Counted from the first letter of the stretch, positions 3,247-45,428 are shown. The stretch: 64,000 bases of DNA from Caldisericia bacterium (GCA_963674785.1 OY771555.1:1024001-1088000); one strand, 5' to 3'. Notes: a model not told the origin generated them from the sequence alone. A program made the numbers and translations.

Positions 3247-3336
3247 TTTCTGTCCCCCTTCTAATAACAAAATCTTGCTCTCCGGTACTTGCTCTTTCAA
3301 TTAACCTGGAATTAGAATAATTGCCTTTATTTCTGA

Positions 3337-3365
3337 TTGCTTCTTAACTTCGAATCTGTTATATT
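3337..3365 (+). promoter_or_regulatory. Sigma70-type promoter, probably giving a leaderless mRNA
   Basis: TTGCTT-17-TATATT with extended TG; ATG 6 nt after the -10 and no SD. Confidence 0.6.
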
Positions 3366-3371
3366 ATACCC

Positions 3372-3899
3372 ATGAGGGGTATATGGATTCTGATTTTAAC
3401 AGTATTTCTTGCACTGGGGTGTTCATCTGGTGCAGATACTCTTCCTGTGATTTCCTCTTGTGACTATTGTATTTCTGTTGTTTCTGGCATTGGTGAAAAA
3501 TTTCGAGATTTTACAGAGTTTAGCTATACTAGATTTGATAACTCTATTGTTGATTATAAACCCGAAAATAACAATCTTTTGATTTTTTGGCGATATGGTT
3601 GCGAAAGCTGCAGGTCTGAGCTTGATTATATTGAGGATTTCGTGGCAAAATATGACACAGAATTGTTGGTGATTTGCATAAATGATGTTGATTCCCTGCC
3701 AATTGTCATGGATGTCTTGCATGAACTAGATCCATCATTTGAGATTGTTTTTGATCCTTCTGGTGCCCTTCGGGTTCCATATCAAGTTTCCTCGGTGCCT
3801 GATTCGATTTATTTTTCCAGTAATGGTGATATAATAGAAAGAAGGAGAGCTTCCATTGACGAATTAACGCTACCCAGACTGATTGGAGAAAACAGATGA
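3372..3899 (+). CDS. TlpA/redoxin-like thioredoxin-fold lipoprotein
   Basis: Lipobox LALGC; FWRYGCESC active site; YQVSSVP cis-Pro loop. Confidence 0.8.
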   Translation: MRGIWILILTVFLALGCSSGADTLPVISSCDYCISVVSGIGEKFRDFTEFSYTRFDNSIVDYKPENNNLLIFWRYGCESCRSELDYIEDFVAKYDTELLVICINDVDSLPIVMDVLHELDPSFEIVFDPSGALRVPYQVSSVPDSIYFSSNGDIIERRRASIDELTLPRLIGENR

Positions 3900-5041
3900 C
3901 AATAACATCTTTGTCACTTAAAGGGCTACTGAGGAAACCAGCTGGATTTATTGCCTCAGTGCTAACGGTTTCTGTGGCTGCTTTTGTTGCCTGCCTATCT
4001 TTTGGTTTGTGGGTTGGATATGATTCAGCTTTGAGAGATGATATTGGTGGTATGGGTGCAGAGATTCTTGCTATCCCAAAAGGTTGCCCATATGAGGCAA
4101 CGGGTGCAATTCTTTCTGGTTCTGCGATTGGCTACTCAATCGATACTGGTTTGATGGAGCAGGCTCGAGAAACCATTGGTGTGGCTGAGGTTTCTGGGGT
4201 CATTATGGGACAGCGTGGAGCTGGTAAAAACAATAAAGTCATTGTTTTTAATGGCATCGATGAAAACTTTTTTACCTTAAAACCACAGTTTGGATTTGAT
4301 GGGGTTGTAGAAAAGGGAGAGGTCATTCTTGGTTATCACACTTCGAAACTTCTTGAGGTAGGAGTTGGGGATACTCTTCAAATTGCAAAAAGAGATTTTG
4401 AAGTCACACATGTTTTTGATGAATTCGGAAGCAATGATGACCTGCTTGTTTTGATGGAAATATCTGATGCCTGGGAATTGCTTAATGTTGACTCGAAACT
4501 CTCATCGGTTTTGATAAAACTTGATGACCCAGATGATGCTGAGATTGTCTCTGCTAGATTGATGGAGATTCCAGACCTGCAGGTTATTACTGTCAATGAG
4601 TTTTATGAAACTGTTTCAGGATTTATTGATGGTGCAAAAATGGCTGTGAGTGCTGTTCTTTTAATTGTACTTCTCATAGCATTTATCGGGATAATTCTTG
4701 CTCAAACAAGCTCCACCATCCAACGCAGAGGAGAGATTGGCATGATGAGGGCAATTGGTGCCTCAAAAACTCATATGGTTTTTGTATCACTTATTTCTGC
4801 AGGTTTCCTTGGTTTGATTGGGAGTTTGGTTGGGGCATCTCTTGGGTCTGTTTTTTCTGGGTCGATTGAAAACCTCATACGTACAACCCTTCCACAAGTA
4901 CCAAATGGTTCAATTATTCAGATAAACGTTCAGATAATGTTGATTACAGTTCTTTTGATGGCTGTGGTTTCAGTTTTAGCAGGATTAGTACCCACACTTC
5001 AAATTGTGAAAATTCGTCCAGTGGAGGCGATAAGTGAATAA
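3896..5041 (+). CDS. MacB/FtsX-type ABC permease
   Basis: 1+3 TM topology with a large extracytoplasmic domain; RRGEIGMMRAIGA; KGCPY motif. Confidence 0.85.
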   Translation: MTITSLSLKGLLRKPAGFIASVLTVSVAAFVACLSFGLWVGYDSALRDDIGGMGAEILAIPKGCPYEATGAILSGSAIGYSIDTGLMEQARETIGVAEVSGVIMGQRGAGKNNKVIVFNGIDENFFTLKPQFGFDGVVEKGEVILGYHTSKLLEVGVGDTLQIAKRDFEVTHVFDEFGSNDDLLVLMEISDAWELLNVDSKLSSVLIKLDDPDDAEIVSARLMEIPDLQVITVNEFYETVSGFIDGAKMAVSAVLLIVLLIAFIGIILAQTSSTIQRRGEIGMMRAIGASKTHMVFVSLISAGFLGLIGSLVGASLGSVFSGSIENLIRTTLPQVPNGSIIQINVQIMLITVLLMAVVSVLAGLVPTLQIVKIRPVEAISE

Positions 5042-5705
5042 AATAGCGATAAAAACAGATTTACTTTCGAAGTTTTATAGTCGAGGAAGCGAAAAAATAA
5101 AAGCTGTGAATGAGGTCTCAATTGAGATAAAAAAAGGTGAGATGGTGGCGGTTATTGGAAGATCTGGTGCCGGCAAAACAACCCTGCTTTCCTGCATGGG
5201 TTTGCTCGAAGGATTTGACTCTGGAAAGCTGTTTATTAATGGCACTGATTTGACTGGAACCACCGAATCAAAGAGAACAAAATTGAGACTCAAATATCTT
5301 GGTTTTATTTTTCAGAGATTTTATCTCCTTCCAACCATGAACAGTTTTGAAAACATCTCGATTCCATTTTTGTTTTCTGGGAGGAAAGCCCCAAAAGGTC
5401 GAATTGATGAACTGCTCGAGATGGTTGGTTTGACCGAGAGAAAGCTTCACAGACCATATGAGCTTTCAGGTGGCGAGATGCAAAGAGTCGCTGTTGCAAG
5501 GGCTTTGGCACTTGACCCTGACATAATCATTGCCGATGAGCCGACAGGGAACTTAGATAGCGGAAATGCAAACAGAATTTTTTCCCTTCTGAAGAATTTG
5601 GCGAATAATGGAAAAACAATTATAATTGCAACACATAGCGGAGAGCTTGCGGGAAGTTGTGATCGAATAATAGAAATGCTTGACGGAAAGGTGGTAAATT
5701 CATGA
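5034..5705 (+). CDS. ABC transporter ATPase (LolD/MacB-like)
   Basis: GRSGAGKTT, LSGGEMQR, IIIADEPTGNLD, H-loop. Confidence 0.95.
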   Translation: MNKIAIKTDLLSKFYSRGSEKIKAVNEVSIEIKKGEMVAVIGRSGAGKTTLLSCMGLLEGFDSGKLFINGTDLTGTTESKRTKLRLKYLGFIFQRFYLLPTMNSFENISIPFLFSGRKAPKGRIDELLEMVGLTERKLHRPYELSGGEMQRVAVARALALDPDIIIADEPTGNLDSGNANRIFSLLKNLANNGKTIIIATHSGELAGSCDRIIEMLDGKVVNS

Positions 5706-6094
5706 AGAAAATGATTTCGCTTGTGGTTGTTTTGTTGCTTGCTGTTGTCATTATGACAGCTTGCGGAGCTGGAGAGTCTACATTTGGGCCAGAACTTGAT
5801 CCCAACATTGATTATGTAAAATCAACTGTTGGAGAGATATTTGTCGATCCAGAACTTTTTGATACTAATGTTGTCCTCGAGGTTGAACTTGTTGAAATTT
5901 GCCCTGCCGGTTGTTGGTTATACATTGCTGACCCAGATGATACAAACAATATCACGCTTTATGTCACAAGACTCAAAGACAGCTTCACCGTTCCAATGGA
6001 GGTTGAGGGAAAAATCGCAAAAGTCTGGGGCAAGGTGACCGCAAACAATCGAGGTGAAATTCTCGAGGGTCACAGGGTAGAAGTCATCGAATAG
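5702..6094 (+). CDS. OB-fold-like lipoprotein with CPAGCW motif
   Basis: Lipobox MTAC; EICPAGCW; beta-rich. Confidence 0.7.
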   Translation: MKKMISLVVVLLLAVVIMTACGAGESTFGPELDPNIDYVKSTVGEIFVDPELFDTNVVLEVELVEICPAGCWLYIADPDDTNNITLYVTRLKDSFTVPMEVEGKIAKVWGKVTANNRGEILEGHRVEVIE

Positions 6095-6096
6095 AA

Positions 6097-7242
6097 ATGA
6101 ACTGGCTTCTATTTGCATTCAGAGGAATAACAGCAAGAAAAGGCTCATGGATACTTTCCGCTGTGTCCATCGCCTTTTCTTTGATGCTTGTGCTTCTTCT
6201 TTTCTCTTTCTACTCGGGATACAAGATTGCCATGGAATCAGAACTTTCAACACTTGGGGTTCAGGTCATGGCAGTACCAAAGGGCTGTCCATATGCCTCA
6301 ACTGCTCTGCTTCTTCATGGTGGACATATCGAAGGTGAACTCCCCGAAAACTCTGTATCTGAAATCTCAGAATTGGACGGTGTGAAGAGGGCTGAGGGGG
6401 TTGTGATGGGTCAGCTTCATCTTGATTCTGGCAAAAAGATAATTCTTTTTGGAACAACTCCAGGATTTTCTGAACTTAAAACTCTGTGGGAAATTGATGG
6501 TGAGTATCCGGCTGATTCTGATTTTGTGGTACTGGGTTCGAGCATGGCTGAACAACTGGGACTAAAAATTCGTGACAGCTTCAATCTTGGCGAAAATGAG
6601 GTTTCAGTTTCTGGAATCTTGAAACCAACGGGCTCATCAGATGACAGCTTTATTTTTCCAACCATTGAGCTAGCAAGAGAGCTACTCGGACTTTCAGGTT
6701 TTACGGCGGTTTTTGCAGATGTAGAGTCAGGGATGTTAACAGACGTCAGTTCGGGGATTGAGGAATTAACAGATGCACAACCGGTAACTGTGAATCAGGT
6801 GGCAACAACAATCGGTGGACTTGTTGATTCAGCTGGCACAATTTTATTTGCTGTTATTCTGGTTGCTATTTTTGCGAGTGCTGCGGTTGTCGCTGGAAGC
6901 TCACTTCTTGGCATAATTGAGCAATCAAAACTCATTGGTATTCAGAGGTCAATTGGGGCATCACCACTGCAGGTTTCCTTTGGAGTGATTCTGCAAACAC
7001 TCATCACCACAGTTTTTGGAGGAGTCGCTGGAATACTTCTGGTATTTCTTCTGAAAACTCCACTTGAAAACCTGCTTCGCGTCTTGATTCCAAATGCACC
7101 ACTTACTGACCTTGTTCTTATCTCCCCATCCATGATCTTCATCACTTTTGGGGTAGCCGTGGCTTTGGGTTTGGTGTCTGCTATTCCGTCACTTTTTGCA
7201 ACACTCAGGAGTTCACCACTTACTATGGCTGGCGGGGCTTAG
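6097..7242 (+). CDS. MacB/FtsX-type ABC permease (second)
   Basis: Same length and topology as 3896-5041; KGCPY; IGIQRSIGA. Confidence 0.85.
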   Translation: MNWLLFAFRGITARKGSWILSAVSIAFSLMLVLLLFSFYSGYKIAMESELSTLGVQVMAVPKGCPYASTALLLHGGHIEGELPENSVSEISELDGVKRAEGVVMGQLHLDSGKKIILFGTTPGFSELKTLWEIDGEYPADSDFVVLGSSMAEQLGLKIRDSFNLGENEVSVSGILKPTGSSDDSFIFPTIELARELLGLSGFTAVFADVESGMLTDVSSGIEELTDAQPVTVNQVATTIGGLVDSAGTILFAVILVAIFASAAVVAGSSLLGIIEQSKLIGIQRSIGASPLQVSFGVILQTLITTVFGGVAGILLVFLLKTPLENLLRVLIPNAPLTDLVLISPSMIFITFGVAVALGLVSAIPSLFATLRSSPLTMAGGA

Positions 7243-31710: not shown

Positions 31711-31771
31711 TTAAGAACTAAAAACATCCTTTCGAGGTACTATTTCTAAAGACTAATTGGAGGTTTTTGAC

Positions 31772-34700
31772 ATGAAAAACCTGAAGATACTTCTTGTTAT
31801 TTTGCTATTTTTTTCAATGTTTTCTGGAGTGGTCGATATTTCTGCGGAGGAATCTTTTCAATATGTCAGCAGGATAATCGTTTTATCTGAAATTTCTGAT
31901 TTTTTTAGTGCCGAAAATCTCCAAAATCAAACAATAAAATCTCAATCAGATGTTATCTCAATTCTAGAGGAACTTGCGCAAACGGGAGATGTTATAGATT
32001 TTCAACCCTTCTGGATACAAAACTGGATATCGGTAACCTGCAAGACGTCTGCTCTGAACACTATCTATTCTGCCTCGGGAGTTGAGTCAATTATCCCAAA
32101 CATCAGAGTGTATGCGGATAAAATGACATCATCCAAGTCAGTGGTCTCAGACAATGAGACATGGAATCTTGAAATGATTGGTGCAGATAAAATCTGGGAG
32201 AAGGGTGTTACTGGTGAGGGTGCTGTAATCGGTGTTCTCGATTCGGGTTGTGATTCAACTCATCCCGAGCTTGCAGGGAAAATTCTTCAATATGGATATA
32301 TCGATGGTTATGGCAGGAAAACAAGCCAAAAGGTTGCAACAGATTCTGATGGTCATGGAACAAGCGTTTGTTCTGTAATTGCTGGTGAAACAACAGGTGT
32401 GGCACCCGATGCAAAACTGATTGTGGGTGCTGTAATTCCTGGTGGGTCAGGATCAATGACCCAGATACTTGGTGGAATGCAGTGGATTTTAAATCCAGAT
32501 GGAGACTACAAAACTGATGATGCTCCAAAGGTTGTAAACATGTCATTTGGTGCACCAGGTGCTTTGAAATATCTTGAATCGGGTATTTCAAATATGATAA
32601 AGATTGGTATATTGCCAATTGCATCTGCTGGAAATGACGGCGAGGGAAGTACGAGTAATCCTGGAAACTTCCCTGATGTTATATCTGTCGGGGCGGTCGA
32701 TTTTACCGAGACAATCACCGATTTCTCAGGTGGTGCTGATGTTTTGTGGGAGGATGTTGATACTGTAGAAACAGTTACAAAACCTGATCTTGTCGCCCCC
32801 GGTGAGAGTATCAGGGTGGCAACCCCGCACAGAACATACGATCTTACAGATGGAACAAGTTCGGCATCCCCACATGTTTCCGGACTATGTGCTTTGTTGT
32901 TATCAGAAAACCCTGAAATGGCCTCCGAGGATTTGAAGTATGCACTGATGGATAATGCAAAAGACCTCGGAAAACCTGGAAAAGATAGAAGATATGGGGT
33001 AGGTCTTGTTCAGGGAGAAGAGAGCTTCAACAGTACCCTCGAAAGAGAACCAAAAAATCTGAGTATTTCCTGGGGCAATAATACTCTTTGGGGTGATATA
33101 GAGGTGAAAACCTCAGACAGAACATACACTGTTTCACGAGATTTGGCAGATGACTTCTCATTTTTAGCACTGCCTGGAACTGATATCTCAGTATCATCTT
33201 TTGGATTTGAAGAGACATATGTAACAGGTGATGAGGTCACCCTTAACGCGCTTCCATCATTTACACTCGATTTGTCAGCATATTCTCCTGAGCTTAATGC
33301 GATGTCTCCCTGTACGGTGAGATTTCCTGAAACCCCTCTTCCTGTTTTTGAGGGTGCAGATGGTCATGTAGAAATTACCCTTCCAGTTGGAAAACATAAT
33401 GTAAGAGTTTATTCTTTTGGACACTCGGATGAAGAGATTGAACTTGAAATATCTGATGATCTGGAAATTGAAGTTGAGCTTACAACTGCAAAAATTGCAT
33501 TTATTGATGACAGGAAATCTGTATTTGGCACTCCACCCGAACCGATTCAGGGGAAGATGAGAAGGTCACTTGATTCAACAGAACTTCCATATTTTATCTG
33601 GACAACACGTGATGGCAGAGTAACAGCTTCTCAGCTATCAAGATTTGAATATGTCATCTGGAATCTTGGGGGCTCCCCAACTGATAAGATTATCAAGGTC
33701 TTGAGGGGCTATATGGATTTGGGCGGAAAGCTTATCTTGACCTCTGATTTTTACGGCGCAAGTTACTTAGGCGAGAGCGATTCTACAGTTTTTCTTGCCT
33801 CTTATTTTGATTGTTATCCAACCGATGGTGGAGGTTCCGCAATTAAACATTGGGATGGAGAGAATTGGAATACTGTCGCAATCGAAACGCCATCATTCCT
33901 CAGAAGCACAGAACTTGTCCCTCTTGGTGATAAAGCTGAACCTATCTTTTACTACTCTGGGTTTGTGAAACAAACTGTGGCAGGGATAAAAGTATCATCA
34001 ATCCACAACCAAGGTGTGGTTCTAGGGTTTACAGTTCCTGTTATCAGTTCTGATGAGAAAAGATCATGGCTTTTGAATTATCTGCTTAATTCCTTTGATG
34101 ATACATCAACTTTTAGAACAAGGATTGAATCTGGTGGGGTTGGTTTAAGTGGAATTGCTATTGTTGATGGTGAACAGGTAGAATTTACTGATGGTGATTT
34201 GTTCATCCCGCATGTCCCAAAAAATCCTGTTAGTGCGAGGATTATCAGTTATGGGTATGATGAAAAAAGCATTAGCTTGGATATGTCTAATACTCCTGAA
34301 GTAATATCTCTTGAAAAATCGAAAATTTCTGAATTAAAAGTAAACACAAATACAGATGGATACATAATTTTTCATGATGTTCCGATTGACCCAATAAAAA
34401 GCACCAGAAACCAGATACTCAAATTACCTGAAGGTGATTATGAGTTAACCTTTGTTTCAAAAGGATTTGTGCCTCAGAAATTAAGTGTTTCTGTACCGGG
34501 ACAATTGAATGCGAGTCTTGTGAATGCCCCAGATTATGTTCTTCTCCCTGAAGGTTATACCCAGATTGCAAATAGCTTGTCGTCACTAGGGCTTGCACAT
34601 TCCAGTAAAGATTTCATAAAAGCAGAAGATATCGTTTCATCTACAGTTTTCCTTTGGAGCAGTTCAGGTAAGGTAAAACAGAGCGATAGAGAGCTGATCT

Positions 34701-36097
34701 CAGAGATAAAAACTGCCCTAAAATGCGGTGCTTCTGTTATTGTTGCGGGTCCCGAGGTTGTAAAATCCTTTGGCGATCCTGTTGAAATCGATTCAATCGC
34801 CTCACAGATTTTTGCTGTAATCGGTAAGGGAAAACTGGATAATATCTTGATTTCGATCAACAAAGCGACAAAAAGGTATGGAATGACGATTCCTGTTCTT
34901 GCTGGTGGTGATACACTTGCAAGTTTTGTAGGTGGAGAATCAGCGATTGTAAGATATGACAATCTCATCATATCTGCTTTTGAGTTTGAAAAGATCGACC
35001 TTGATATTGTGGCAAAGGAAGTAATTCGGCTTCTCCTTTCAGAATTTGGGATTGATGAATCGAATCTTCCTATGCCAAAGATTACAACACCTGCATCACC
35101 CACAAATATGAATCCGCTTGTTGTAACAGGATTTGTTGCCCCAGATTCTGATTCTGTGATAGTGATAAGTGATGCTGAGTATGATTTAAATACTGATCTT
35201 GAAGGTTTTTTTGTGTTTGAATCTAATCTTCCAGAGGGTTCATATACTGTTCAGTTAAAGTCAAAAAAGAATGGTAAGAGTTCTGAAAGTGTAAAAACTC
35301 CCCTTGTGATCGATAGAACTCCTCCGGAAGTTATTGTACTCTCACCAAAAGATGGTTATTGCATAAATCAAGAGGTTGAGGTCATAGCGTCGTGTGTTGG
35401 TGCAAAAGAAGCACGAATTGATGGGGTTGAAGTAAAGATTTCAGGTGATCAGATTTCAAAGAAAGTATCGGCTACAAACGGAACAATAATGCTTGAAGCT
35501 GTTGATGCTACGGGAAACAAAAATCTTCAAATTCTCAACTACAAACCAAATATGAATATCGCAATTGACGCAAAGTCATCCGATGCATTCTTCGAGATTT
35601 CCCAGGTTTATGCTGCAAATGTGTTTGATGATGAATCATTCCGTCCATTCCAGGTTTCCACCAAGGGAGAGGTTGCCACATATCTTACTAAGGCATTGGG
35701 ATTATCACCAAAACCTGGGAAATGCCCATATAAAGATGTTTCCAAGAGCGATCCAGCCGAACCATATATTGGTGCACTGTATGAAGCGAATGTTCTTTCC
35801 GGTGTTGGAGAGTTTAAATCAAATTCAAATTCGACGATGGAATTCTTGCTTCAGATGATTGCTAATCGATACGGATTATCGTATTCCCCACCCACACCTA
35901 CATTTTCTGATTTGAATAACAGTAGCCTTTGGTATGGTGGGGTTGAAGGTTGTGTAAAAGCAAAGATTCTCAATCCAAAGGATATTAGATTGTTTACCGG
36001 TGAAAGTTTTAACCCAGGCTCAGGTGTAAAGAGAGAAGAAGTTGCAATAATAATTTATTGGTTGTTGAAATATAGAGCTAGAAATGGAGGGAAATAA
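31772..36097 (+). CDS. Large secreted S8 serine peptidase with accessory beta domains and C-terminal SLH-like repeats
   Basis: Signal peptide; VLDSG, HGT and GTSSASPHV triad; DRTPP Ig-like linker; FRP..STKGEVA and FNPG..VKREEVA SLH-like ends. Confidence 0.88.
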   Translation: MKNLKILLVILLFFSMFSGVVDISAEESFQYVSRIIVLSEISDFFSAENLQNQTIKSQSDVISILEELAQTGDVIDFQPFWIQNWISVTCKTSALNTIYSASGVESIIPNIRVYADKMTSSKSVVSDNETWNLEMIGADKIWEKGVTGEGAVIGVLDSGCDSTHPELAGKILQYGYIDGYGRKTSQKVATDSDGHGTSVCSVIAGETTGVAPDAKLIVGAVIPGGSGSMTQILGGMQWILNPDGDYKTDDAPKVVNMSFGAPGALKYLESGISNMIKIGILPIASAGNDGEGSTSNPGNFPDVISVGAVDFTETITDFSGGADVLWEDVDTVETVTKPDLVAPGESIRVATPHRTYDLTDGTSSASPHVSGLCALLLSENPEMASEDLKYALMDNAKDLGKPGKDRRYGVGLVQGEESFNSTLEREPKNLSISWGNNTLWGDIEVKTSDRTYTVSRDLADDFSFLALPGTDISVSSFGFEETYVTGDEVTLNALPSFTLDLSAYSPELNAMSPCTVRFPETPLPVFEGADGHVEITLPVGKHNVRVYSFGHSDEEIELEISDDLEIEVELTTAKIAFIDDRKSVFGTPPEPIQGKMRRSLDSTELPYFIWTTRDGRVTASQLSRFEYVIWNLGGSPTDKIIKVLRGYMDLGGKLILTSDFYGASYLGESDSTVFLASYFDCYPTDGGGSAIKHWDGENWNTVAIETPSFLRSTELVPLGDKAEPIFYYSGFVKQTVAGIKVSSIHNQGVVLGFTVPVISSDEKRSWLLNYLLNSFDDTSTFRTRIESGGVGLSGIAIVDGEQVEFTDGDLFIPHVPKNPVSARIISYGYDEKSISLDMSNTPEVISLEKSKISELKVNTNTDGYIIFHDVPIDPIKSTRNQILKLPEGDYELTFVSKGFVPQKLSVSVPGQLNASLVNAPDYVLLPEGYTQIANSLSSLGLAHSSKDFIKAEDIVSSTVFLWSSSGKVKQSDRELISEIKTALKCGASVIVAGPEVVKSFGDPVEIDSIASQIFAVIGKGKLDNILISINKATKRYGMTIPVLAGGDTLASFVGGESAIVRYDNLIISAFEFEKIDLDIVAKEVIRLLLSEFGIDESNLPMPKITTPASPTNMNPLVVTGFVAPDSDSVIVISDAEYDLNTDLEGFFVFESNLPEGSYTVQLKSKKNGKSSESVKTPLVIDRTPPEVIVLSPKDGYCINQEVEVIASCVGAKEARIDGVEVKISGDQISKKVSATNGTIMLEAVDATGNKNLQILNYKPNMNIAIDAKSSDAFFEISQVYAANVFDDESFRPFQVSTKGEVATYLTKALGLSPKPGKCPYKDVSKSDPAEPYIGALYEANVLSGVGEFKSNSNSTMEFLLQMIANRYGLSYSPPTPTFSDLNNSSLWYGGVEGCVKAKILNPKDIRLFTGESFNPGSGVKREEVAIIIYWLLKYRARNGGK

Positions 36098-36524
36098 AGT
36101 GGAAGATATTCTTGAAAAACTCCGTAGAAATGGCTATAGGATCACGAAACCTAGGGAAGAGATTTTAAAACTTTTCATCGAAGCAGAAGGTGAAAACCTG
36201 GATGCAAGCGAAATAATGGAAAGACTCATCAAAGCAAAAGTCGATATTGATATGGCGACACTCTATAGAAATCTCGAGCTTTTGTTTTCGCTTAAGATTA
36301 TTCATAAAAGTAATTTCACACACCAGCATGCTCATTATGGGTTGACAACGGACAGAGAAATACACTTTGTTTGCAAAGAGTGTGGTTCGATTACCGAAAC
36401 CTCAATAGATGAAAACTCAGAAATAATAAAAACAATAAATGAAATAGGTGATAATTTTGTAGTTGAAAGTGTCTCAATAGAAGCCTACGGCACCTGTAAA
36501 AGATGCCGTAGGAACGATACCTAA
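36084..36524 (+). CDS. Fur-family transcriptional regulator
   Basis: GYRITKPR, ATLYRNL, HFVCKECG, GTCKRC. Confidence 0.9.
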   Translation: MEGNKVEDILEKLRRNGYRITKPREEILKLFIEAEGENLDASEIMERLIKAKVDIDMATLYRNLELLFSLKIIHKSNFTHQHAHYGLTTDREIHFVCKECGSITETSIDENSEIIKTINEIGDNFVVESVSIEAYGTCKRCRRNDT

Positions 36525-36560: not shown

Positions 36561-36776
36561 TCAGTCTGTGATTGCTCTGACAGCTGATGCCTGTTTGCCT
36601 TTGTCGCCGTCAATTATTTCAAACTCAACCTGCTGGTCTTCTCTAAGTGTTTTGAAGCCATCAACACCCTGAATAGAGGAGAAATGTACAAATACTTCCT
36701 CGTCACTACCGTCTACCTTGATAAAACCGTAACCTTTTTTGTTGTCAAACCAGAGTACTTTACCCTTCGAAATCAT
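36561..36776 (-). CDS. Cold-shock protein
   Basis: [26 protein letters not shown]. Confidence 0.95.
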
Positions 36777-36876: not shown

Positions 36877-37623
36877 TTACTTAAATCTAAAGTTTGCAAT
36901 CTTGCCGTGATTAATCCAGACAAGTTCTGCGCCGAGTGAATCTCCAACAGCTTTTACAGGAACAAATGTTCTGCTGTTTACAATCTCTGGTGCTGAAACA
37001 AGATCATAGTCTTTGCCGTTGACCTTGGCGTTTTGTTTACCGATCCACATCTGACCAACAAGTTTGCCGCTCTTCTTGATGTCGACTCTTCTCTCGTTGC
37101 CGTCCCAACCAACTTCTCCACCAAGGTTCTCGATTCCTGCTCTAAGCGGAACCATGGATTTTTCCTTTTTGGAGATATAGCAAGGTGCGTCGATTTCAAC
37201 CTGTTCACCATTGCCAATAATATACTGCCTTGCATCACCATCATCTTCATTGCTGAGGATGAAAGAAACACATTTGCTATATTTTTTCTTTGGGTTGCTC
37301 ATGAAATCACCAGGGTTATATCCTGCTTCGATTTCCTGTATGTTGGTGTATCCATCGGCATCCACGTCATCGTTTTCAAATGCTGGGAAGTCGCCATCCA
37401 TAAGGACTTCGTACTGTACGCCGTAAAGGTTTCTTGGTGTGTCACCATTTTCATGGAAGTGACAAAGCCAACAGTCGGCACCCTTTAGTTTAGTATCTTT
37501 TGCACTGAAATCTGGGTAGAAATATAAAAATTCCTCTGAATAATCTTCCTGACCGAGAACCACCATGAAAGAAGCCACGAACATGATTGCTACAACAACT
37601 GCAACGATTGATAATCTCTTCAT
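36877..37623 (-). CDS. Secreted protein with CxxCH heme motif, Ca-binding DxDxDG motif and copper-amine-oxidase-N (stalk) domain
   Basis: CWLCH; DVDADGYTNIQEI..G.NPGD; MVPLR..E.LG.EVGWD; APEIVNSRTFVPV. Confidence 0.8.
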   Translation of the reverse strand: MKRLSIVAVVVAIMFVASFMVVLGQEDYSEEFLYFYPDFSAKDTKLKGADCWLCHFHENGDTPRNLYGVQYEVLMDGDFPAFENDDVDADGYTNIQEIEAGYNPGDFMSNPKKKYSKCVSFILSNEDDGDARQYIIGNGEQVEIDAPCYISKKEKSMVPLRAGIENLGGEVGWDGNERRVDIKKSGKLVGQMWIGKQNAKVNGKDYDLVSAPEIVNSRTFVPVKAVGDSLGAELVWINHGKIANFRFK

Positions 37624-37771
37624 AAACTAGACCTCCTGTAGTCTTGATGTCATTTTATGTCTCGTTTTATTAAATACAACTATTTCGTAGTATAAGGTTT
37701 TCTGAGTTTTACTGATTTTTTTAACCAAAGTTTTGATTTCTATCCCTGGCAGAAAAAGCTTGAAAGAGTTG

Positions 37772-39259
37772 TTATTCAGGAAATCCCTGTCCCCAGAGGA
37801 AACGTATGATTCTTTCAGCATCCTCATCGCTTATATGATTTGGATCTTTTTGAACCATTCTTTTTACTATCGGTTCCCAATCATTCCTTGCCTTTGTCTC
37901 AGGAGCTGGAAGATTGTGGCATTTGCTGCATTTTTCTTCAAAAAGATTTTTCCCAATGTTCGGTTCTGGAAGTGATTGGTTTTCATTAAGCTTTGGACTA
38001 ATGAAGAAAAGCGACCCATTATTGATCTCTGCTGTTACATCAAAATTATTGTTGATGAATGAGAGTGGAATCAAGAGTTTGCTTTTTGAGATAAAAACGT
38101 TTGGAATAATCTCAAATGTTTTTGCATCTTTGTGAGCCATTGATGTGTCCGGAAACACTTTTACTAATGAGTTATTATTTGATACTGCAGCACTTCTTTC
38201 AGTTTCATCCCAAAAAACATCATAACCGAAGCTTTCGAAGATTGGTCGAAGTTCGACAAAATAATGCCCATCAATGAGCTCTGGTTTGTTTTTTAAACCG
38301 ATATTTTCACCAGATCTGCTGTATATTACAAAACTGTTTGGATTTGCGGTCAAAAGTTTTTGTTCGGGTAGTGTGGTTGCATTTCTTAGCGTGAAAAGGT
38401 AAACACCGTCTTTGTCAAACTTGTGAAGTAGCACCTCATTGTCAACGATTTCAGCGGCATAACATCCTGCGTCGAGATAATCACAAATAACAGTAAGTGG
38501 ATCTGTTAAAACTGATTCGCCACAGCTAAACAGGTACTCAAGTTCACGTGAAAACACATGAAGACTGCCTGTTCCTCGGTCTGCGACCCAAACCCTTCTG
38601 TCGTTATCCTCTGAGGTTGCGACATCTGAGGGATTCTCAAGTATTCCATCACCACACTCCCCAATGACTCGACCCCACTCGTCTGTTTTGACGATTCTTT
38701 TATTTTCGGGGTCGGCTATGAAGACCTGTTTGATGAAATCCATGTAGGTGCCAGCAATTTTGCCGAAAGGTTTTTCGGGGTAGTTTTTGAACTCTCCATC
38801 GATTTCTCCTGGAGGTGCAACATGAAATGCTTTTCCATCCATCGTCCCGAGGATCAGATGTTCATAATTAGAATCCTGACAGATTGCGAGGCTTGAAGAG
38901 TTTGAGTACTTCAGTTCAGGTATTGTGTTGTCTTTTTTCCACAAAATGCTTCCTGAAAAATCAACCACCCAAATGGTTTCTGTAACTGGATCGAGAAGCC
39001 CAATGCCTCCACCACAAGAGCAAACACTTACGTCCGTAAAGCTTTCTGCGCCAAGATTTGATGCAGAATCAAACTCCCCAAGGTATATTCCTGTTTCTGA
39101 ATCAATATGATGAATTATGCCTGTTTCAAAATCGAGAAGATAAAGGTCTTTGTACTTATCGACACCGAGAGATAATCCCTGAAGTTTGGAACCAATATTT
39201 GTAGGAAACGTCATCGCACACAAACAGACAACGAACACCACTAAAAAAACTTTTTTCAT
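37772..39259 (-). CDS. Secreted NHL-propeller + stalk domain + C-terminal monoheme cytochrome c
   Basis: VFIADPENKRI and VWVADRG repeats; VELRPIFESFGYDVFWD; GKNLFEEKCSKCH...WEPIVKRM. Confidence 0.8.
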   Translation of the reverse strand: MKKVFLVVFVVCLCAMTFPTNIGSKLQGLSLGVDKYKDLYLLDFETGIIHHIDSETGIYLGEFDSASNLGAESFTDVSVCSCGGGIGLLDPVTETIWVVDFSGSILWKKDNTIPELKYSNSSSLAICQDSNYEHLILGTMDGKAFHVAPPGEIDGEFKNYPEKPFGKIAGTYMDFIKQVFIADPENKRIVKTDEWGRVIGECGDGILENPSDVATSEDNDRRVWVADRGTGSLHVFSRELEYLFSCGESVLTDPLTVICDYLDAGCYAAEIVDNEVLLHKFDKDGVYLFTLRNATTLPEQKLLTANPNSFVIYSRSGENIGLKNKPELIDGHYFVELRPIFESFGYDVFWDETERSAAVSNNNSLVKVFPDTSMAHKDAKTFEIIPNVFISKSKLLIPLSFINNNFDVTAEINNGSLFFISPKLNENQSLPEPNIGKNLFEEKCSKCHNLPAPETKARNDWEPIVKRMVQKDPNHISDEDAERIIRFLWGQGFPE

Positions 39260-39271
39260 AAATCAAAAAAT

Positions 39272-39703
39272 CTAGTGGAATTCGATCCTGGTGTCAGTGA
39301 TCACGTAGACAAGACCACGTTTGGTGAGTGTCCCGAATATTGTTGCTTTTCTACCCACTCTTGATGGAAGAAGAAGTCCGTACGAAGAGTTGTCTTCAAT
39401 CAAAATCTCGCCGGTTTCGTCTTTCAAAAAGAAGTCACAACATTGAGCCTCGTCGCGAGTGATTATGCCACAAACCTCCACCGTCGATTGGTTTCTGTTT
39501 TCACAATATCTATCGATGGCATCAGAGATACAGCATCTCATATTAGTCCTGTTGGAGTCACTTGTTGCGACTGGTGAAAGAGTCAACCAGCCAGATATGT
39601 AGAAGGTTGTGAAAGCGATTAAAAGCACAAGCACAAAAACAATATACGGAATAAATCCGACCGCTACACCGTCCTTATTTTTAGTTTTTTTTGAAAGAAT
39701 CAT
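39272..39703 (-). CDS. Membrane-anchored OB-fold-like protein with two CC pairs
   Basis: N-terminal TM; RCC, QCC; FFLKDETGEILIE. Confidence 0.65.
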   Translation of the reverse strand: MILSKKTKNKDGVAVGFIPYIVFVLVLLIAFTTFYISGWLTLSPVATSDSNRTNMRCCISDAIDRYCENRNQSTVEVCGIITRDEAQCCDFFLKDETGEILIEDNSSYGLLLPSRVGRKATIFGTLTKRGLVYVITDTRIEFH

Positions 39704-39733
39704 ATTCCCTTCTTGAAACCTAAAAACAACTTC

Positions 39734-40159
39734 CTATTTACTCGCTCCAAAGCTTATAACGTCGATGATCTTCTTATCTTTAATTATGGCAACTTCGATA
39801 CCTTCAGCTGTTGTGTAAGCTTTTGCGTCGATACCTGTTTCACCTGTCTGTGAAGTATAATAGCTAATTGCCTCTGCTTCAAGTCTCTCAAAGTCAACAT
39901 TTGAAGTAGCAGATGATCCACAACTGCTTGCCGATCCACATCCACCTGCGGTGCTTCCGCATCCGCCAGAAACAGTGGCGCTGCTACAACTTGCCTGTTC
40001 TGCGGGTGAACATCCACCTTCGATTCCCGAACATGATCCCCCACTAACATAATTTGTTAGGTTTCCACCGGATGATGCAAATGCATTAATCCCAAGGGCG
40101 ACAAGAATCACCACACAAACAACGATTATCGAAACCATCAAAATATTCTTTTTATCCAC
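39734..40159 (-). CDS. Membrane-anchored protein with a Gly/Ser/Cys-rich tract
   Basis: GGSCSG..GGCS..SCSS..GGCGS..GGCGS..SCGS; GGAG RBS. Confidence 0.7.
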   Translation of the reverse strand: MDKKNILMVSIIVVCVVILVALGINAFASSGGNLTNYVSGGSCSGIEGGCSPAEQASCSSATVSGGCGSTAGGCGSASSCGSSATSNVDFERLEAEAISYYTSQTGETGIDAKAYTTAEGIEVAIIKDKKIIDVISFGASK

Positions 40160-40190
40160 AATAATACTCCTTGGTCAATCTTTAGCCGTA

Positions 40191-40218
40191 ATGATACACC
40201 CCCGGGGGTATACATCAA
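40191..40218 (-). promoter_or_regulatory. Promoter with a CsoR/RcnR-type operator in the spacer
   Basis: TTGATG-TATACCCCCGGGGGTG-TATCAT; C-tract/G-tract inverted repeat flanked by TATAC. Confidence 0.7.
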
Positions 40219-40296
40219 GGGAATGCAATTAAAGCTAAGTAAATATTGGTTTAATCCTGTCAATAGCAACGATTCTTACTCACTTCTGTGGTGTTC

Positions 40297-42908: not shown

Positions 42909-45428
42909 GTGAAGAAGATTGGTTTGGTGTTGGTTTGCTTGGTTATTCTTACGGTTCTTGCTGGGTGTCAAAAAGGGGATATGATCGATTTTCTAAGTTC
43001 CAATTACGAAGTTTTTGATTATCGACTTCTATCTGATGAAATTCCAGACGTTCCAAAGTGTGATAAGGTTTGGACTCCGAAAGGATTTATGGGGTTTGGG
43101 CAACTTCAACAAAAGTGGGTGAATGAAATTGATTATGGCGACAGATGGGAAGGAATAAGTGATGTAGATGTTTACCCTGACTCCTGGGGTCAACTTGATC
43201 CGGAAACTGGGAAATATCTTGGGTCACCTTCCCAACAGGCTAATGGGAGTATTGTTGATGGTGTTATCGATGAATTTTCATTTAGCCAAGGTTTCACTGA
43301 CGAAAAGTATAAAATTGAAAAAACGTATGGTGGGCACATGAGTACCATTGCCATGGTTGTCAAAGATTACGAAACAAACGAGATTCTTTGGAGAAAAAGT
43401 ATTGGAACCGATTTTGAATCTCTTGTTGTTTCGAATTCTTTGATTTTTATTAAAACTGATTTGGGAGGTGGTTATATCGCAAGGTTGAATCCAGAGACTG
43501 GCGAAGAGATTTGGTCACTGAATCTGCAGATTTTTCAATCAATCGATGCCCAGATATTTGATGATAAAATTGTTTTTGTGCTTGGTGCCCCAAACCTTGA
43601 CAAAACCATTATTTGTTTGATTGATCCTGAAACTGGTTCATATATGGAAAAAGAAGTAAGTTTTTCAAATATTGAATCATTCATCTGTTTAGATAATAAA
43701 ATATGGCTTTTCGATGCTTGTTCAAATTATTGCATCTTTGATATGCATGATGAAAGCATTTTAACCGGAGACCTGGGGTTTGAAACGGATTTCATGTTGG
43801 CAAATGATAAACATGAAAGAATCAAAGTTATCGATAATTTATTGCTCATAAAGCTTTTGAAACCAGATGAGTACGATTCATATTATATGCTTTTTGACAC
43901 AAAATCGAAAAAACGAGAATTCCTCGAATATGAATATGTGGATGTTGTAAATGGTGCTCTTGTTGCTTGCAATGAAGAGACGATTTTTGAGCTAAGTCCT
44001 GATTCTTTGAGCAGAATTTGGTGGGTAAAAAGAACCGATGAAATGGATTTTAATCCGAATCCACAATACTATGACTCAAAACCTTCGGTTCTCTGGTGTG
44101 ATGATAGAGGAGTACTTATTGTTGGTGGGGGCAAGCTCTTTTGCTATGATCAAGAGGACTCTCTGTCAAAAGTTATTAGCCAGAATGAAAATGGTCTTGT
44201 TGCGACATTCCCCGAAGGGTGGAGTTTTTCAAGTGATTCTGATGAGATAGATGACAAGATAATCAGGCTTCAAGAAATTGTCCCAAACTCAGAAAAACTC
44301 GAAATTTATGTACCAGAAAAGTTTGATGGTGAAGGGGTGCTTTCAAAAAAATGGGAGATAGATTTGGGTACTGGTAAACATTTTGTTGAAGATATGTTCG
44401 GTTCTCAGAAATTTGATTTCCTAGCTCTTAATGATACCTGGTGTTTCAAAAAAGATTACTTGGATAAAGAGGGAGACTGGGAAAGCAGGAAAGAACTAAG
44501 TTTTGCAATTAACCCCGAAACAGGGGACTATAAAGAAACCCAAACAAGATACGGAATAACAGATGGGAAAACTGTTTGGGTGGATGATTATTGTGGTGGA
44601 TGCCTTGAAAGAACACTTTGTTGGAAACCTGATGTTGGAGATATTTGGGTTGGCAAGGAGTTTGATGAAGGAGAAGGGCTTTTTAATCGCGATGATTTTT
44701 ACATTGTCTCTGGAAAACTACTCTTTGTTGGAAAAAAGACTTGGAATGGATTACGTTCAGAAAAAATATCATTAATGGATCCATGGACAGGTAAAAGGGA
44801 ATGGGAGTTCTCGACATCAAATGAGATTCTTAGGGTGTTTTCTCTCCCTTTAAGTAATTCAATACTCTTGGAGACGGGATATGCAGAAAATATAGGTATT
44901 GGCGAACATACTTATATCTATGAATATTTTGTTTTAGATATTAATAATCTTATTATGAAAAAAGTTTTTGATGGTGAGAATTTTTTTGTCTTTAAAGTTG
45001 ATGATGATGTTTTTGCAATGACCAATGGTGAATTATTCAGGTTTTCAAATGACTTCGAAAAACTTGAAAAAATCACTGATTATGACCAGGATTTTAGACC
45101 CATCACTGATAGAAGAAAATTCTGGAATAATGCAGCAGGAACGTATATCTTGGTTGAAAGCTGGAAGAATCAAACTCTTCCACCTGAACTTATGAATACT
45201 GAAACAGGTGAAAAAAAGCCCCTGGGTTTTTCAAGCCAAATGATTATCAATGGGTGTCTTGTTGCAAGTGATGGCAGGAGATTGTTCTCGCTTAACCCAG
45301 AGAACCTCAATCCAGTTTGGAAGATAGAATGTGATAACCTTGGTAAAAATCCTGAAGTCATTTGGCAGGATGAACGTGGAGTTCTTATCATGAGTGATAG
45401 TAAACTCACTTGCTTTGGTGGAAATTAG
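42909..45428 (+). CDS. Lipoprotein with two PQQ-like beta-propeller modules
   Basis: Lipobox LAGC; LDPETG..W repeats; both halves end in W.D.RGVLI...KL.C. Confidence 0.75.
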   Translation: MKKIGLVLVCLVILTVLAGCQKGDMIDFLSSNYEVFDYRLLSDEIPDVPKCDKVWTPKGFMGFGQLQQKWVNEIDYGDRWEGISDVDVYPDSWGQLDPETGKYLGSPSQQANGSIVDGVIDEFSFSQGFTDEKYKIEKTYGGHMSTIAMVVKDYETNEILWRKSIGTDFESLVVSNSLIFIKTDLGGGYIARLNPETGEEIWSLNLQIFQSIDAQIFDDKIVFVLGAPNLDKTIICLIDPETGSYMEKEVSFSNIESFICLDNKIWLFDACSNYCIFDMHDESILTGDLGFETDFMLANDKHERIKVIDNLLLIKLLKPDEYDSYYMLFDTKSKKREFLEYEYVDVVNGALVACNEETIFELSPDSLSRIWWVKRTDEMDFNPNPQYYDSKPSVLWCDDRGVLIVGGGKLFCYDQEDSLSKVISQNENGLVATFPEGWSFSSDSDEIDDKIIRLQEIVPNSEKLEIYVPEKFDGEGVLSKKWEIDLGTGKHFVEDMFGSQKFDFLALNDTWCFKKDYLDKEGDWESRKELSFAINPETGDYKETQTRYGITDGKTVWVDDYCGGCLERTLCWKPDVGDIWVGKEFDEGEGLFNRDDFYIVSGKLLFVGKKTWNGLRSEKISLMDPWTGKREWEFSTSNEILRVFSLPLSNSILLETGYAENIGIGEHTYIYEYFVLDINNLIMKKVFDGENFFVFKVDDDVFAMTNGELFRFSNDFEKLEKITDYDQDFRPITDRRKFWNNAAGTYILVESWKNQTLPPELMNTETGEKKPLGFSSQMIINGCLVASDGRRLFSLNPENLNPVWKIECDNLGKNPEVIWQDERGVLIMSDSKLTCFGGN

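Follow-up and report, generated by a model that had tools for sequence, protein, structure and literature searches.

Why would a bacterium keep exported haem proteins where haem synthesis and known respiration appear to be missing, and what would it use them for? This puzzle is posed by a cluster of four genes, called A to D here, on the minus strand (40218-36877) of a 64,000-nucleotide stretch of Caldisericia DNA (the window), with a sigma-70-like promoter ahead of it. A sequence-only reading had described the cluster as a metal-sensor-controlled operon of exported Cys-rich proteins and surface cytochromes. The features of the locus are:

40216-40243, minus strand: upstream element TTTAC-N6-CTTTAAtTG-N7-CTTG, extending into the -35 hexamer
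40191-40218, minus strand: promoter of A-B-C(-D), with -35 TTGATG (40218-40213), a 16-nt spacer and -10 TATCAT (40196-40191)
40195-40212, no strand assigned: CsoR/CstR-type-looking palindrome, halves TATACCCCC and GGGGGTGTA, in the spacer of the A promoter
39734-40159, minus strand: gene A, 141 aa, anchored Cys-rich protein
39272-39703, minus strand: gene B, 143 aa, N-terminal anchor and OB-fold-like ectodomain
37772-39259, minus strand: gene C, 495 aa, signal peptide, NHL propeller, PF07833 stalk and cytochrome c
39184-38369, minus strand: six-bladed NHL propeller of C (residues 26-297)
38311-38015, minus strand: PF07833 stalk of C (residues 317-415)
37930-37916, minus strand: CSKCH (residues 444-448) in the class-I-like monohaem cytochrome c domain of C (residues 431-495, with Met468)
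37652-37681, minus strand: internal promoter-like element before D, AGTTGTATTTAA ... TA(A/G)AAT
36877-37623, minus strand: gene D, 248 aa, signal peptide, CxxCH module and PF07833 stalk
37551-37264, minus strand: module of D with CxxCH, RNxYG and DxDxDG, a TSP3-like Ca motif (residues 25-120)
37473-37459, minus strand: CWLCH of D (residues 51-55)
37212-36907, minus strand: PF07833 stalk of D (residues 138-239)

The sequence-only reading had proposed looking for conservation of the operon and of its CxxCH motifs, for a CsoR-family gene and for cytochrome c maturation genes, and all of these were found. The A-D cluster is kept in nine of ten sister genomes of one Caldisericales family of uncultured bacteria, and full-length C is likewise present in 9/10, the tenth genome being 69% complete. 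The four genes adjoin one another in eight loci, and in a ninth A and B lie at a contig end. Between C and D there is a gap of 148 nt that holds D's own conserved promoter, in which a 12-nt block and a -10-like hexamer are kept in 4/4 same-genus sequences. Because D has this promoter, A-B-C and D may be two transcription units. We put at about even the chances that the locus is a lineage-specific cell-envelope redox module of this family. The co-occurrence of the operon with the ccm genes described below falls within the one family and is a single phylogenetic event.

Gene C had been read as an NHL propeller, a stalk domain and a CSKCH cytochrome with a distal Met, and each of these parts was recovered behind a single N-terminal hydrophobic segment (the export signal). 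The propeller was detected by PDB profile search (1.2e-17) and, in a model with a pLDDT of 87, matched the NHL domain of TRIM3 (VIA) with Z 28.7 and rmsd 2.5 over 244 residues; with the single sequence, the Pfam NHL score was 16.7, below the cut-off of 20. In each of the six blades, the loop between strands A and B carries invariant residues drawn from Cys, His, Asp and Glu, an axial clustering derived from sequence and predicted strands and not from coordinates. The motif CQDSxYEH is missing from three haem-less paralogues of C. The stalk matches PF07833 at 1.9e-15 (57.2 bits vs a cut-off of 24.2). In the cytochrome domain the CxxCH and Met468 are invariant in 21/21 sequences; its nearest cytochromes are SorB (NF052246, 4.7e-5), 3a9f and 2blf_B, with scores that are sub-threshold both for PF13442 (20.2 vs 27) and for SorB (23.4 vs 93).

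The earlier description of D as a CWLCH protein with a stalk also stood: its PF07833 match is at 1e-23 (83.7 bits vs 24.2), and the stalk matches domain 1 of the E. coli amine oxidase (1d6u residues 7-82) with Z 8.0. D has a single N-terminal hydrophobic segment as export signal, and its CxxCH is invariant in 17/17 sequences. Within the module no Met or His is invariant as a haem partner, and the candidate distal ligands are the invariant Lys114, the invariant Cys118, or Tyr28/36. Pfam gave no cytochrome HMM match for D. The module aligns with cytochrome c2 (2c2c) at E 0.0015 over C..CH....G...NL.G, and the structure model of D has low confidence in its haem half (pLDDT ~50). Residues 47-121 match positions 47-131 of NF041762 at 4.9e-8, with 32.6 bits against a cut-off of 300; a literature search found no paper on this GEGP-motif family. 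A profile of the D module drew 2019 proteins at E<=1e-3, and the pattern CxxCH...RNxYG...DxDxD...PG occurs in 92 among the 149 matches listed for it. Relatives of the module end in His-Pro in 43/100 cases, as do 2/9 D orthologues, and they are fused to multihaem MtrC-like or c7-like cytochromes, to cohesin/dockerin and to archaeal surface anchors. They also match Pfam Temptin_C (PF24784), an animal family that, to our knowledge, is not known as a haem protein. Judged by these profile matches, the haem module of D is part of a large unnamed family.

The two upstream genes encode small anchored proteins. A, for which a (GGCGS) repeat had been claimed, is Cys-rich and membrane-anchored (one N-terminal hydrophobic segment), but the repeat is only loose: six Cys lie within a G/S/C-rich stretch, approximately GGC(G/S)S, that forms an extracytoplasmic linker. 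A small conserved C-terminal alpha/beta domain is also present, and neither Pfam nor NCBIfam gave a match for A. Across its orthologues in nine family loci, C50, C67, D89, Y101 and K113 are invariant, so that only two of its Cys are. B has one hydrophobic segment and the two CC pairs that had been noted in an OB-fold-like protein, but among nine aligned sequences the pairs occur only in three of the same genus, and no His, Tyr or Cys of B is invariant. There was no direct Pfam match for B. Its distant profile matches carry DUF4920, one of them above the cut-off, and hhalign joins it (92.6%, E 4.6e-7) to a second protein in the window, itself at 19.2 vs a cut-off of 25 for DUF4920:

5702-6094, plus strand: lipoprotein of 130 aa, DUF4920-like and paralogous to B, inside a thioredoxin-like/MacB-type operon

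From these profile comparisons, the ectodomain of B appears distantly related to DUF4920/BOF proteins and OB-fold-like.

The promoter of A scored 9/12 in a consensus scan. Eight aligned orthologous regions show no variation at its CTTG and TA..AT positions, nor at TTTAC, TTA and CTTG of the upstream element, which may be an UP element or an activator site. The CCCCC-GGGGG inverted repeat reported in the promoter spacer is indeed there: the core CCCCCGGGGG lies at 40199-40208, between -35 and -10, in an extended palindrome with 16/18 positions paired. This core occurs twice in the 2.23-Mb genome vs ~0.2 expected, and at <=1 mismatch it has three matches in the 64-kb window vs 0.20 in shuffles, a count reached by 0/100 window shuffles. 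The CsoR family typically uses G/C-tract pseudo-palindromes that overlap promoters (PMC10318464), as the sequence-only reading had said. The half-site letters are those of the genome's canonical operators, described below, but the ACCCC..GGGGT core spans 12 bp vs 13 bp in those conserved sites, and the palindrome scores 4.4 bits (rank ~70 in the genome PWM scan) vs 21.9-29.8 bits for three canonical sites. For the Thermus repressor TTHA1953, one base more or fewer between the half-sites is reported to lower affinity 10-15-fold (PMC10318464). The palindrome is present in 0/9 orthologous promoters and is confined to this genome; with its spacing 1 bp off as well, the label of a metal-sensor-controlled operon fits at best one strain. 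We give somewhat less than an even chance that this palindrome functions as an operator for the CstR-like protein introduced next; control of the A operon by this protein is plausible but unproven.

The genome encodes a single CsoR-family protein (PF02583), with C34, K59 and C63 as its sensing residues (x-C-K-C) and no His at the W position. In alignment, K59 takes the place of a His in both InrS and Geobacillus CsoR and of an Asn in SpCstR, and two family orthologues have the same x-C-x-C pattern. Metal sensors of this family are marked by x-C-H-C (Cu) or by H-C-H-H/H-C-H-C (Ni/Co). The pattern x-C-x-C is described as the defining mark of persulfide sensors (PMC8643695). By its ligand residues the protein is thus of the CstR persulfide-sensor type and not a Cu/Ni sensor. 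Sites of the form atACCCC-N3-GGGGTat lie ahead of dsrE2-dsrEFH in this genome and five relatives, ahead of napH-like genes in two genomes, and ahead of the thioredoxin/MacB/DUF4920 operon. One of this genome's canonical sites lies in the window:

3364-3384, no strand assigned: strong putative CstR-type operator TTATACCCATGAGGGGTATAT, 23.9 bits (PWM)

It has the second-best PWM score in the genome, is outside the PWM training set, and is followed by the thioredoxin-like/MacB-type ABC operon (3372-7242).

We infer from these observations that A-D is an envelope redox module, possibly linked to sulfur. Scavenged haem would be attached by Ccm as covalent haem c to C and D, and the stalk domains would hold both proteins at the envelope. 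The NHL propeller of C would be the substrate or catalytic site, with electrons passing to or from it via C's own His/Met haem; D would be a second tethered carrier, and A (the Cys-rich tether) and B (the DUF4920-like OB fold) would be membrane-anchored partners. The most likely chemistry would be extracytoplasmic sulfur or thiol redox, acting on sulfide, polysulfide or persulfide, because the promoter spacer in this genome gained a CsoR/CstR-type palindrome, because the sole CsoR-family repressor has the two Cys and lacks the His, as persulfide sensors do, and because the canonical sites head dsrE2-dsrEFH, a napH-like gene and the thioredoxin/MacB operon with the B paralogue. We advance a function in sulfur or thiol redox tentatively; no sulfur enzyme domain was found in A-D. 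As for the Cu/Ni or sulfur handling suggested from the sequence alone, sulfur is the better lead, still an inferred one, and the metal part did not stand.

It is unlikely, though worth weighing, that the cytochrome module is real but has a job unrelated to sulfur, such as an extracellular electron sink for fermentation or peroxide/oxygen removal, with the palindrome being chance or structural sequence or the site of another factor rather than a CstR-like operator. The missing base pair and the low PWM rank fit this reading, as does the conservation of the operon where 0/9 orthologous promoters carry the palindrome, which means that the operon works without it. The fusions of the D-module relatives (MtrC-like, c7-like, surface anchors) fit outward electron transfer, and a UbiA-family prenyltransferase is present in the genome. 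However, the core is found twice where 0.2 occurrences are expected, one of them fitting precisely into the space between -35 and -10 and flanked by TA-rich palindromic sequence as the family's operators are, and a membrane link from quinol to cytochrome c (bc1, NrfD, NapC-type multihaem) was not seen in this genome. Mo-oxidoreductases (molybdopterin), NrfD, COX1 (haem-copper oxidases) and cytochrome bd are missing from it, and it yielded no known respiratory complex.

That a CsoR/RcnR repressor sensing Cu(I) or Ni/Co controls an operon for handling metal at the cell surface is very improbable. It would account for the G/C-tract palindrome over the A promoter and for the PF02583 gene, the Cys-rich A and the CC motifs of B could bind metal, and the regulator's best NCBIfam matches are RicR and RcnR, both far under their cut-offs. 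Against this, the Y position of the regulator is Lys and not the His of Cu and Ni sensors; no such site lies upstream of the copA-like gene, and the best-scoring PWM sites are elsewhere; DsrE-type and thiol-redox genes follow the conserved sites; the palindrome is strain-specific; and the CC motifs of B and most Cys of A are unconserved. Cu/Ni handling is left unsupported.

The sulfur-linked redox module that we prefer would need a haem supply. HemB (ALAD) and HemC were each found in 0/11 family genomes, and by these two tested markers haem synthesis appears excluded for the family, so holo-C and holo-D would depend on haem uptake. A streamlined System I set, ccmABCEF, is present in 11/11 family genomes; in this genome ccmC, ccmE and ccmF are Pfam-confirmed, ccmA and ccmB were assigned by reading ORFs, and ResB was not found. 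CcmF_C scores above its threshold in 11/11 genomes of the family and in 0/30 genomes of four other families. The CcmE of this genome has CPSKY, and such CxxxY-type CcmE is reported to be functional in Methanosarcina acetivorans (PMC9084895). CxxCH occurs in 38 six-frame ORFs of this genome, in which the other exported examples are thioredoxin-like WCxxC proteins or are not conserved, and C and D are its sole conserved CxxCH proteins. C and D are probably real Ccm-matured cytochromes.

A role in haem economy, in which a haem auxotroph would use the module to capture, store or buffer scavenged haem at its envelope and not to transfer electrons, has little probability: the missing HemB and HemC, the position of C and D as the only conserved haem c clients, and the anchor and OB-fold build that B shares with the haem chaperone CcmE would suit it, but haem on CxxCH thioethers cannot be passed on, hhalign matches B only weakly with the CcmE of this genome (15%), no His, Tyr or Cys of B is invariant, and the haem domain of C is of the classic His/Met kind that transfers electrons. 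It is equally hard to credit that neither C nor D is a haem protein, with CxxCH as a disulfide or metal motif in surface-binding proteins and ccm serving something else; sub-threshold cytochrome HMMs, the Temptin_C matches and the missing haem synthesis point that way, whereas the CxxCH His is invariant in a class-I context in both proteins, Met468 is invariant, and the five-gene ccm set, retained in 11/11 genomes, has no other conserved client.

The sulfur-linked module resembles known systems in part. Its regulator shares with CstR and TTHA1953 the PF02583 fold, the x-C-x-C pair and the lack of a Cu-ligand His; the canonical sites resemble the cst core operator ATATACCCTTATGGGGTATAT (PMC8643695), and here too they head sulfur-transfer genes. 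A precedent for control of c-type cytochrome (Sox) genes by such a repressor is TTHA1953, which belongs to the CsoR family, has two Cys and represses the sox operon of Thermus (PMC10318464). The predicted regulon differs in comprising dsrE2-dsrEFH, a napH-like gene and the thioredoxin/MacB/DUF4920 operon in place of rhodanese, persulfide dioxygenase or CoA-persulfide reductase, and the putative site before A differs in its shorter core and its restriction to one genome.

Quinohaemoprotein alcohol dehydrogenases, cytochrome cd1 nitrite reductase and cytochrome-fused NosZ combine an active-site propeller with a cytochrome c. Like them, C would join in one chain a beta-propeller and a monohaem class-I cytochrome c wiring it to a redox partner. 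Unlike them, it has a six-bladed NHL propeller without PQQ, d1 or Cu-site signature, whose closest structural matches are NHL domains that are not enzymes (TRIM2/3, the PknD sensor); PF07833 sits between its propeller and haem domain, and no catalytic cofactor was identified for it. With SorB/c2-type cytochromes (NF052246; 2blf_B, 3a9f, 2c2c) both proteins share a short helical domain that carries CxxCH close to its beginning, together with the distal Met in C and C..CH....G...NL.G in D. All their scores are under the family cut-offs, however, and in D, which has no invariant Met/His, a Ca-binding TSP3/EF-hand-like loop replaces the usual C-terminal half. The 'GEGP motif-containing diheme protein' NF041762 and PF24784 likewise carry a CxxCH and TSP3 module, N-terminal in many uncharacterised surface proteins, but D matches NF041762 only partially, has one haem motif, and continues into PF07833 instead of the rest of the GEGP protein.

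PF07833 (Cu_amine_oxidN1) is the domain common to C and D. A literature search found no report of its fusion to cytochromes c. The sequence-only reading had placed stalk domains on surface proteins, and PF07833 has been reported on surface-exposed and cell-wall proteins (PMC4137172). The domain is hugely expanded in this genome, with 42 matches at E<=1e-20.

We analysed the four-gene operon on the minus strand of the window, whose genes are here called A to D; other coordinates are given on C1, the single contig of the source genome.

Features of the operon
40218-40191, minus strand: sigma-70-like promoter, TTGATG-16 nt-TATCAT (direct reading and consensus scan)
40159-39734, minus strand: gene A, 141 aa (ORF)
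39703-39272, minus strand: gene B, 143 aa (ORF)
39259-37772, minus strand: gene C, 495 aa (ORF)
37623-36877, minus strand: gene D, 248 aa (ORF)

The genes are separated by gaps of 30 nt (A-B), 12 nt (B-C) and 148 nt (C-D), and a promoter-like block ahead of D (37652-37681) is conserved in 4/4 same-genus sequences. The operon diverges from dnaN, which starts at 40304. In related genomes, eight of the fetched loci have all four genes side by side, and the ninth carries A-B at a contig end. Among 40 relatives examined, full-length C was found in nine of the ten sister genomes of the same Caldisericales family (the tenth is 69% complete), and four other families of the class contain only haem-less paralogues made of propeller and stalk. 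A large protein collection held 23 members of the C family, 15 of the D family and 22 of the close B family.

Both C and D start with a signal-like N-terminus. C continues with a six-bladed NHL propeller, a PF07833 (Cu_amine_oxidN1) domain (1.9e-15), which we refer to as the stalk, and a short helical domain carrying CSKCH; this combination of NHL propeller, PF07833 and cytochrome c is an apparently undescribed architecture. The structure of C was predicted with a pLDDT of 87, and its propeller matched TRIM3 (VIA; Z 28.7, rmsd 2.5, 244 residues) and scored 1.2e-17 in a profile search of the PDB. Foldseek and VIA returned generic NHL propellers only, with no enzyme-specific match. The nearest relatives of the haem domain are the class I cytochromes 3a9f and SorB (2blf_B, NF052246), all under curated cut-offs. 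The CxxCH motifs taken by the sequence-only reading as haem c sites proved to be conserved: CxxCH and the distal Met468 are invariant in 21/21 C sequences, and CxxCH, Lys114 and Cys118 in 17/17 D sequences. Further invariant residues of C (D34/K35; C80/C82; C127/Q128/S130/E133/H134; D174/K177/Q178; E217/D218/R221; D260/Y261/D263) come just after the first predicted strand in each of the six blades, and this placement suggests that they form one pocket around the propeller axis. The CQDSxYEH motif in this set is missing in three haem-less paralogues. The PF07833 stalk is strongly expanded in the source genome (42 matches at E<=1e-20, for example at C1:1095102-1110515), with many copies fused to propellers, so that the family probably relies on it as its usual means of envelope attachment.

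D consists of a module of ~95 residues, with CWLCH, RNxYG and a DxDxDG calcium-type loop, followed by a PF07833 stalk (1e-23). By alignment, the module matches the N-terminal half of cytochrome c2 (2c2c, E 0.0015) as well as EF-hand loops; the aligned orthologues contain no invariant Met or His in it. Because the D model was poor in its N-terminal half (pLDDT ~50), the wide structure search was confined to the stalk, which matched domain 1 of the E. coli amine oxidase (Z 8.0). When 1.84 billion representatives were searched with a profile of D residues 25-120, a threshold of E<=1e-3 gave 2019 proteins, some of them matching the calcium-loop part only, and E<=1e-10 gave 220. In 92 of the 149 relatives listed, a regular expression found the order CxxCH...RNxYG...DxDxD...PG, mostly directly after the signal peptide, and 43/100 modules end in His-Pro. 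The relatives range from ~105 aa to >1000 aa, and their other parts include multihaem MtrC-like and c7-like domains, class I cytochrome repeats, cohesin/dockerin, PGF-CTERM archaeal anchors and up to seven (<=7) tandem copies of the module. Judged from these sequences, the CxxCH plus calcium-loop module is widespread at the N-terminus of surface proteins in bacteria and archaea. Several relatives carry the Pfam label Temptin_C on it, some above cut-off, and it matches part of the NCBIfam model 'GEGP motif-containing diheme protein'. A literature search found no paper that treats Temptin_C or GEGP motif proteins as haem proteins, the temptin papers being on molluscs only, and a cluster look-up of ten relatives gave no informative names. 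The module appears to be undescribed, with ~2000 relatives at E<=1e-3 that include matches to the calcium loop only.

A single hydrophobic segment lies at the N-terminus of A, and likewise of B. In A, six Cys fall within a Gly/Ser-rich stretch, and the C-terminus forms a small conserved domain; no family in Pfam or NCBIfam matched A, and the protein atlas gave nothing useful for it. B had no direct family match. The earlier description of B as OB-fold-like is reasonable, since B aligns with a DUF4920-like lipoprotein of 130 aa encoded elsewhere in the window (5702-6094; hhalign probability 92.6%, E 4.6e-7) and its most distant profile matches carry DUF4920 (one above cut-off) and a weak BOF. 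In the protein atlas B led to OB-fold clusters, all below 0.9. We dropped the idea that B is a CcmE-like haem chaperone, as hhalign to the CcmE of the genome gave just 15%. Conservation of the CC pairs of B and of most Cys of A ends at the genus.

Genes that could attach haem c to C and D are present. The source genome contains ccmA, ccmB, ccmC, ccmE and ccmF in one cluster (C1:1975567-1979993; ccmC, ccmE and ccmF by Pfam, ccmA and ccmB by ORF reading); ccmD, ccmH and ccmI are not among the ORFs listed there, and ResB of System II was not found in the genome. CcmE has the motif CPSKY, the Cys variant also seen in archaea and Desulfovibrio; a CxxxY-type CcmE without CcmD, CcmH or CcmI is described as functional in Methanosarcina acetivorans (PMC9084895). 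CcmF_C was above cut-off in 11/11 family genomes vs 0/30 genomes of four other families, one of which gave three sub-threshold matches. This family-wide co-occurrence with the operon is one phylogenetic event and gives no independent support. A six-frame scan of the genome yielded 38 ORFs with CxxCH. Besides C and D, two of the exported ones are thioredoxin-like WCxxC proteins; a candidate third cytochrome (524 aa, CNWCH, C1:1271290-1272864) lacks the motif in two orthologues and one paralogue; and in a further one, a giant surface protein, the motif occurs once. For these reasons we regard C and D as the only conserved Ccm clients.

The haem itself would probably come from outside. ALAD (HemB) was not found in any of the 11 family genomes, yet 5/7 genomes from a different family of the class have it, and HemC was likewise not found (0/11); most of the genomes are an estimated 90-96% complete, so we read these absences as 'not found' and not as proven. 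Molybdopterin oxidoreductase, NrfD, haem-copper oxidase and cytochrome bd were all searched for in the single-contig source genome and not found; a UbiA-family prenyltransferase is present. The source organism thus resembles a haem auxotroph that has no known respiratory chain. Read literally, these results mean that the family obtains its haem by scavenging and maintains five ccm genes for the sake of two envelope proteins, while missing each standard respiratory complex searched for. Should C and D prove to be true cytochromes, fermenters without haem synthesis or a recognisable respiratory chain can keep c-type cytochromes and Ccm. A literature search on cytochrome c in Caldisericum returned no paper on the A-D locus by title or abstract.

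The inverted repeat (palindrome) in the spacer of the A promoter was confirmed. CCCCCGGGGG fills part of the spacer (40199-40208) and occurs twice in the genome (2.23 Mb, 39% G+C), vs ~0.2 copies predicted by a composition or first-order model. The window has three matches to the C5G5 word at <=1 mismatch, a count reached in 0/100 shuffles, and with its flanks the palindrome spans 18 nt, 16/18 of them paired, so we consider it real and not a chance of composition. The remaining two near-matches (20970, 58553) have no TA flanks and resemble coding sequence. Literature on the string ACCCCCGGGGGT gave nothing relevant. The -35 and -10 elements are conserved among orthologous upstream regions, together with an upstream element, TTTAC-N6-CTTTAAtTG (40216-40243), that extends into the -35 and has 12 positions invariant in eight family sequences. 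A C3+/G3+ pair is absent from 9/9 orthologous upstream stretches, and the closest relative has a spacer that is also 16 nt long and shares 7/16 letters. From this we conclude that the palindrome arose in place in the source lineage. It offers a natural experiment, in which one strain gained a CsoR/CstR-type palindrome and its relatives run the same promoter without it.

The sequence-only reading had also proposed a CsoR/RcnR-type metal sensor. A CsoR-family repressor does exist, encoded by the only PF02583 gene of the genome (C1:1148635-1148859); its fingerprint, C34, K59 and C63, is of the persulfide-sensor type and not that of a metal sensor. In alignments to solved structures, K59 falls on the metal-ligand His of InrS and Geobacillus CsoR and on Asn of S. 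pneumoniae CstR. Fakhoury et al. describe persulfide sensors as x-C-x-C without the metal-ligand His, and give ATATACCCTTATGGGGTATAT as the cst core operator (PMC8643695). We found atACCCC-N3-GGGGTat between the promoter and the start of a dsrE2-dsrEFH-like operon in the source genome (C1:1089146) and five relatives, and before a napH-like polyferredoxin gene in the source genome and one relative. A weight matrix (PWM) of the presumed operators of this CstR-like protein was built from seven such sites.

Highest-scoring PWM sites
C1:1089146 region: best site, dsrE2, 29.8 bits, in the training set
3364-3384 of the window: second site, 23.9 bits, new
napH: third site, 21.9 bits

A promoter and the predicted operator ATACCCCAGGGGGGTAT immediately precede the dsrE2 operon, an arrangement kept in five relatives. 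This sulfur-relay operon, with dsrE2 and dsrE/F/H-like (tusBCD-like) genes, occupies C1:1089146-1090944, just past the window end. The new site, TTATACCCATGAGGGGTATAT, is a strong CstR-type predicted operator at 3364 that overlaps the ATG at 3372. Behind it, five genes (to 7242) encode a thioredoxin-like lipoprotein, a MacB/FtsX permease, an ABC ATPase, a DUF4920-like lipoprotein with CPAGCW, which is a paralogue of B, and another permease. Divergent from this operon (2120-3300) are genes for two Cys-rich membrane proteins with no assigned family. The palindrome before A has an ACCCC...GGGGT core of 12 bp and not 13 bp, and for this reason scored only 4.4 bits (about rank 70); in the Thermus relative TTHA1953, changing the half-site spacing by one base in either direction is reported to lower affinity 10-15-fold (PMC10318464). 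The locus helps to define a CstR-type regulon of DsrE2/DsrEFH, NapH-like and thioredoxin/MacB/DUF4920 genes, in a phylum that, to our knowledge, is known in culture from a sulfur-compound reducer only.

The best-supported reading of the locus is a lineage-specific envelope redox module; its components would be two cytochromes, matured by Ccm and tethered by their stalks, and a pair of anchored accessory proteins. For its chemistry, we tentatively favour extracytoplasmic sulfur or thiol redox, which we judge possible, short of probable. All pointers to it are indirect: the source strain has acquired a palindrome of the persulfide-sensor type, a B paralogue sits inside a canonical operon of the CstR-type regulon, free invariant Cys occur in C (C80, C82, C127) and D (C118), and the haem domain of C weakly resembles SorB. 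The main alternative is that the module serves as a general electron sink or in oxidant defence. Handling of Cu or Ni, as first proposed, is not supported, given the Lys at the metal-ligand His position and a copA-like gene whose upstream region contains no such site.

A more specific form of the sulfur or thiol proposal, which we consider unlikely, is that a non-respiring, haem-auxotrophic family keeps Ccm solely for a new extracytoplasmic sulfane-sulfur/thiol redox enzyme made of C, D, A and B. Here a Cys/His-lined axial pocket of the NHL propeller would be wired to the haem c of C itself, and D would supply a partner haem with unusual ligation (His/Cys, His/Lys or His/Tyr). A would be a Cys-rich membrane tether and B a DUF4920-like OB protein, both acting as partners. 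If this is so, a large unnamed family of surface haem modules, bacterial and archaeal, would gain its first functional handle in the D module.

Contigs of one marine-sediment RNA library cover 37272-37422 within D (0 differences) and 39333-39602 within B (1 difference). They may stem from DNA, so they give only a weak hint that B and D are expressed. Most of the stretch is without cover in the RNA-library contigs of run X1, which is uninformative on expression.

On the minus strand, TGTGGATAA, a perfect DnaA-box word (40152-40160) not common to the closest relative, overlaps the GTG start of A opposite dnaN. No dnaA lies upstream of dnaN, which is followed by recF (41444), a DciA-family gene (42439) and a gene (42909-45428) whose lipoprotein-like product (839 aa) weakly matches PQQ_2/BamB-like propellers. 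On the other side, the next gene after D encodes a cold-shock protein (36561-36776, minus strand). Beyond it, the stretch 31757-36524 encodes a 1446-aa S8 subtilase with SLH and CarboxypepD_reg-like domains and a Fur-family regulator (36084-36524), the start of the regulator gene overlapping the end of the subtilase gene.
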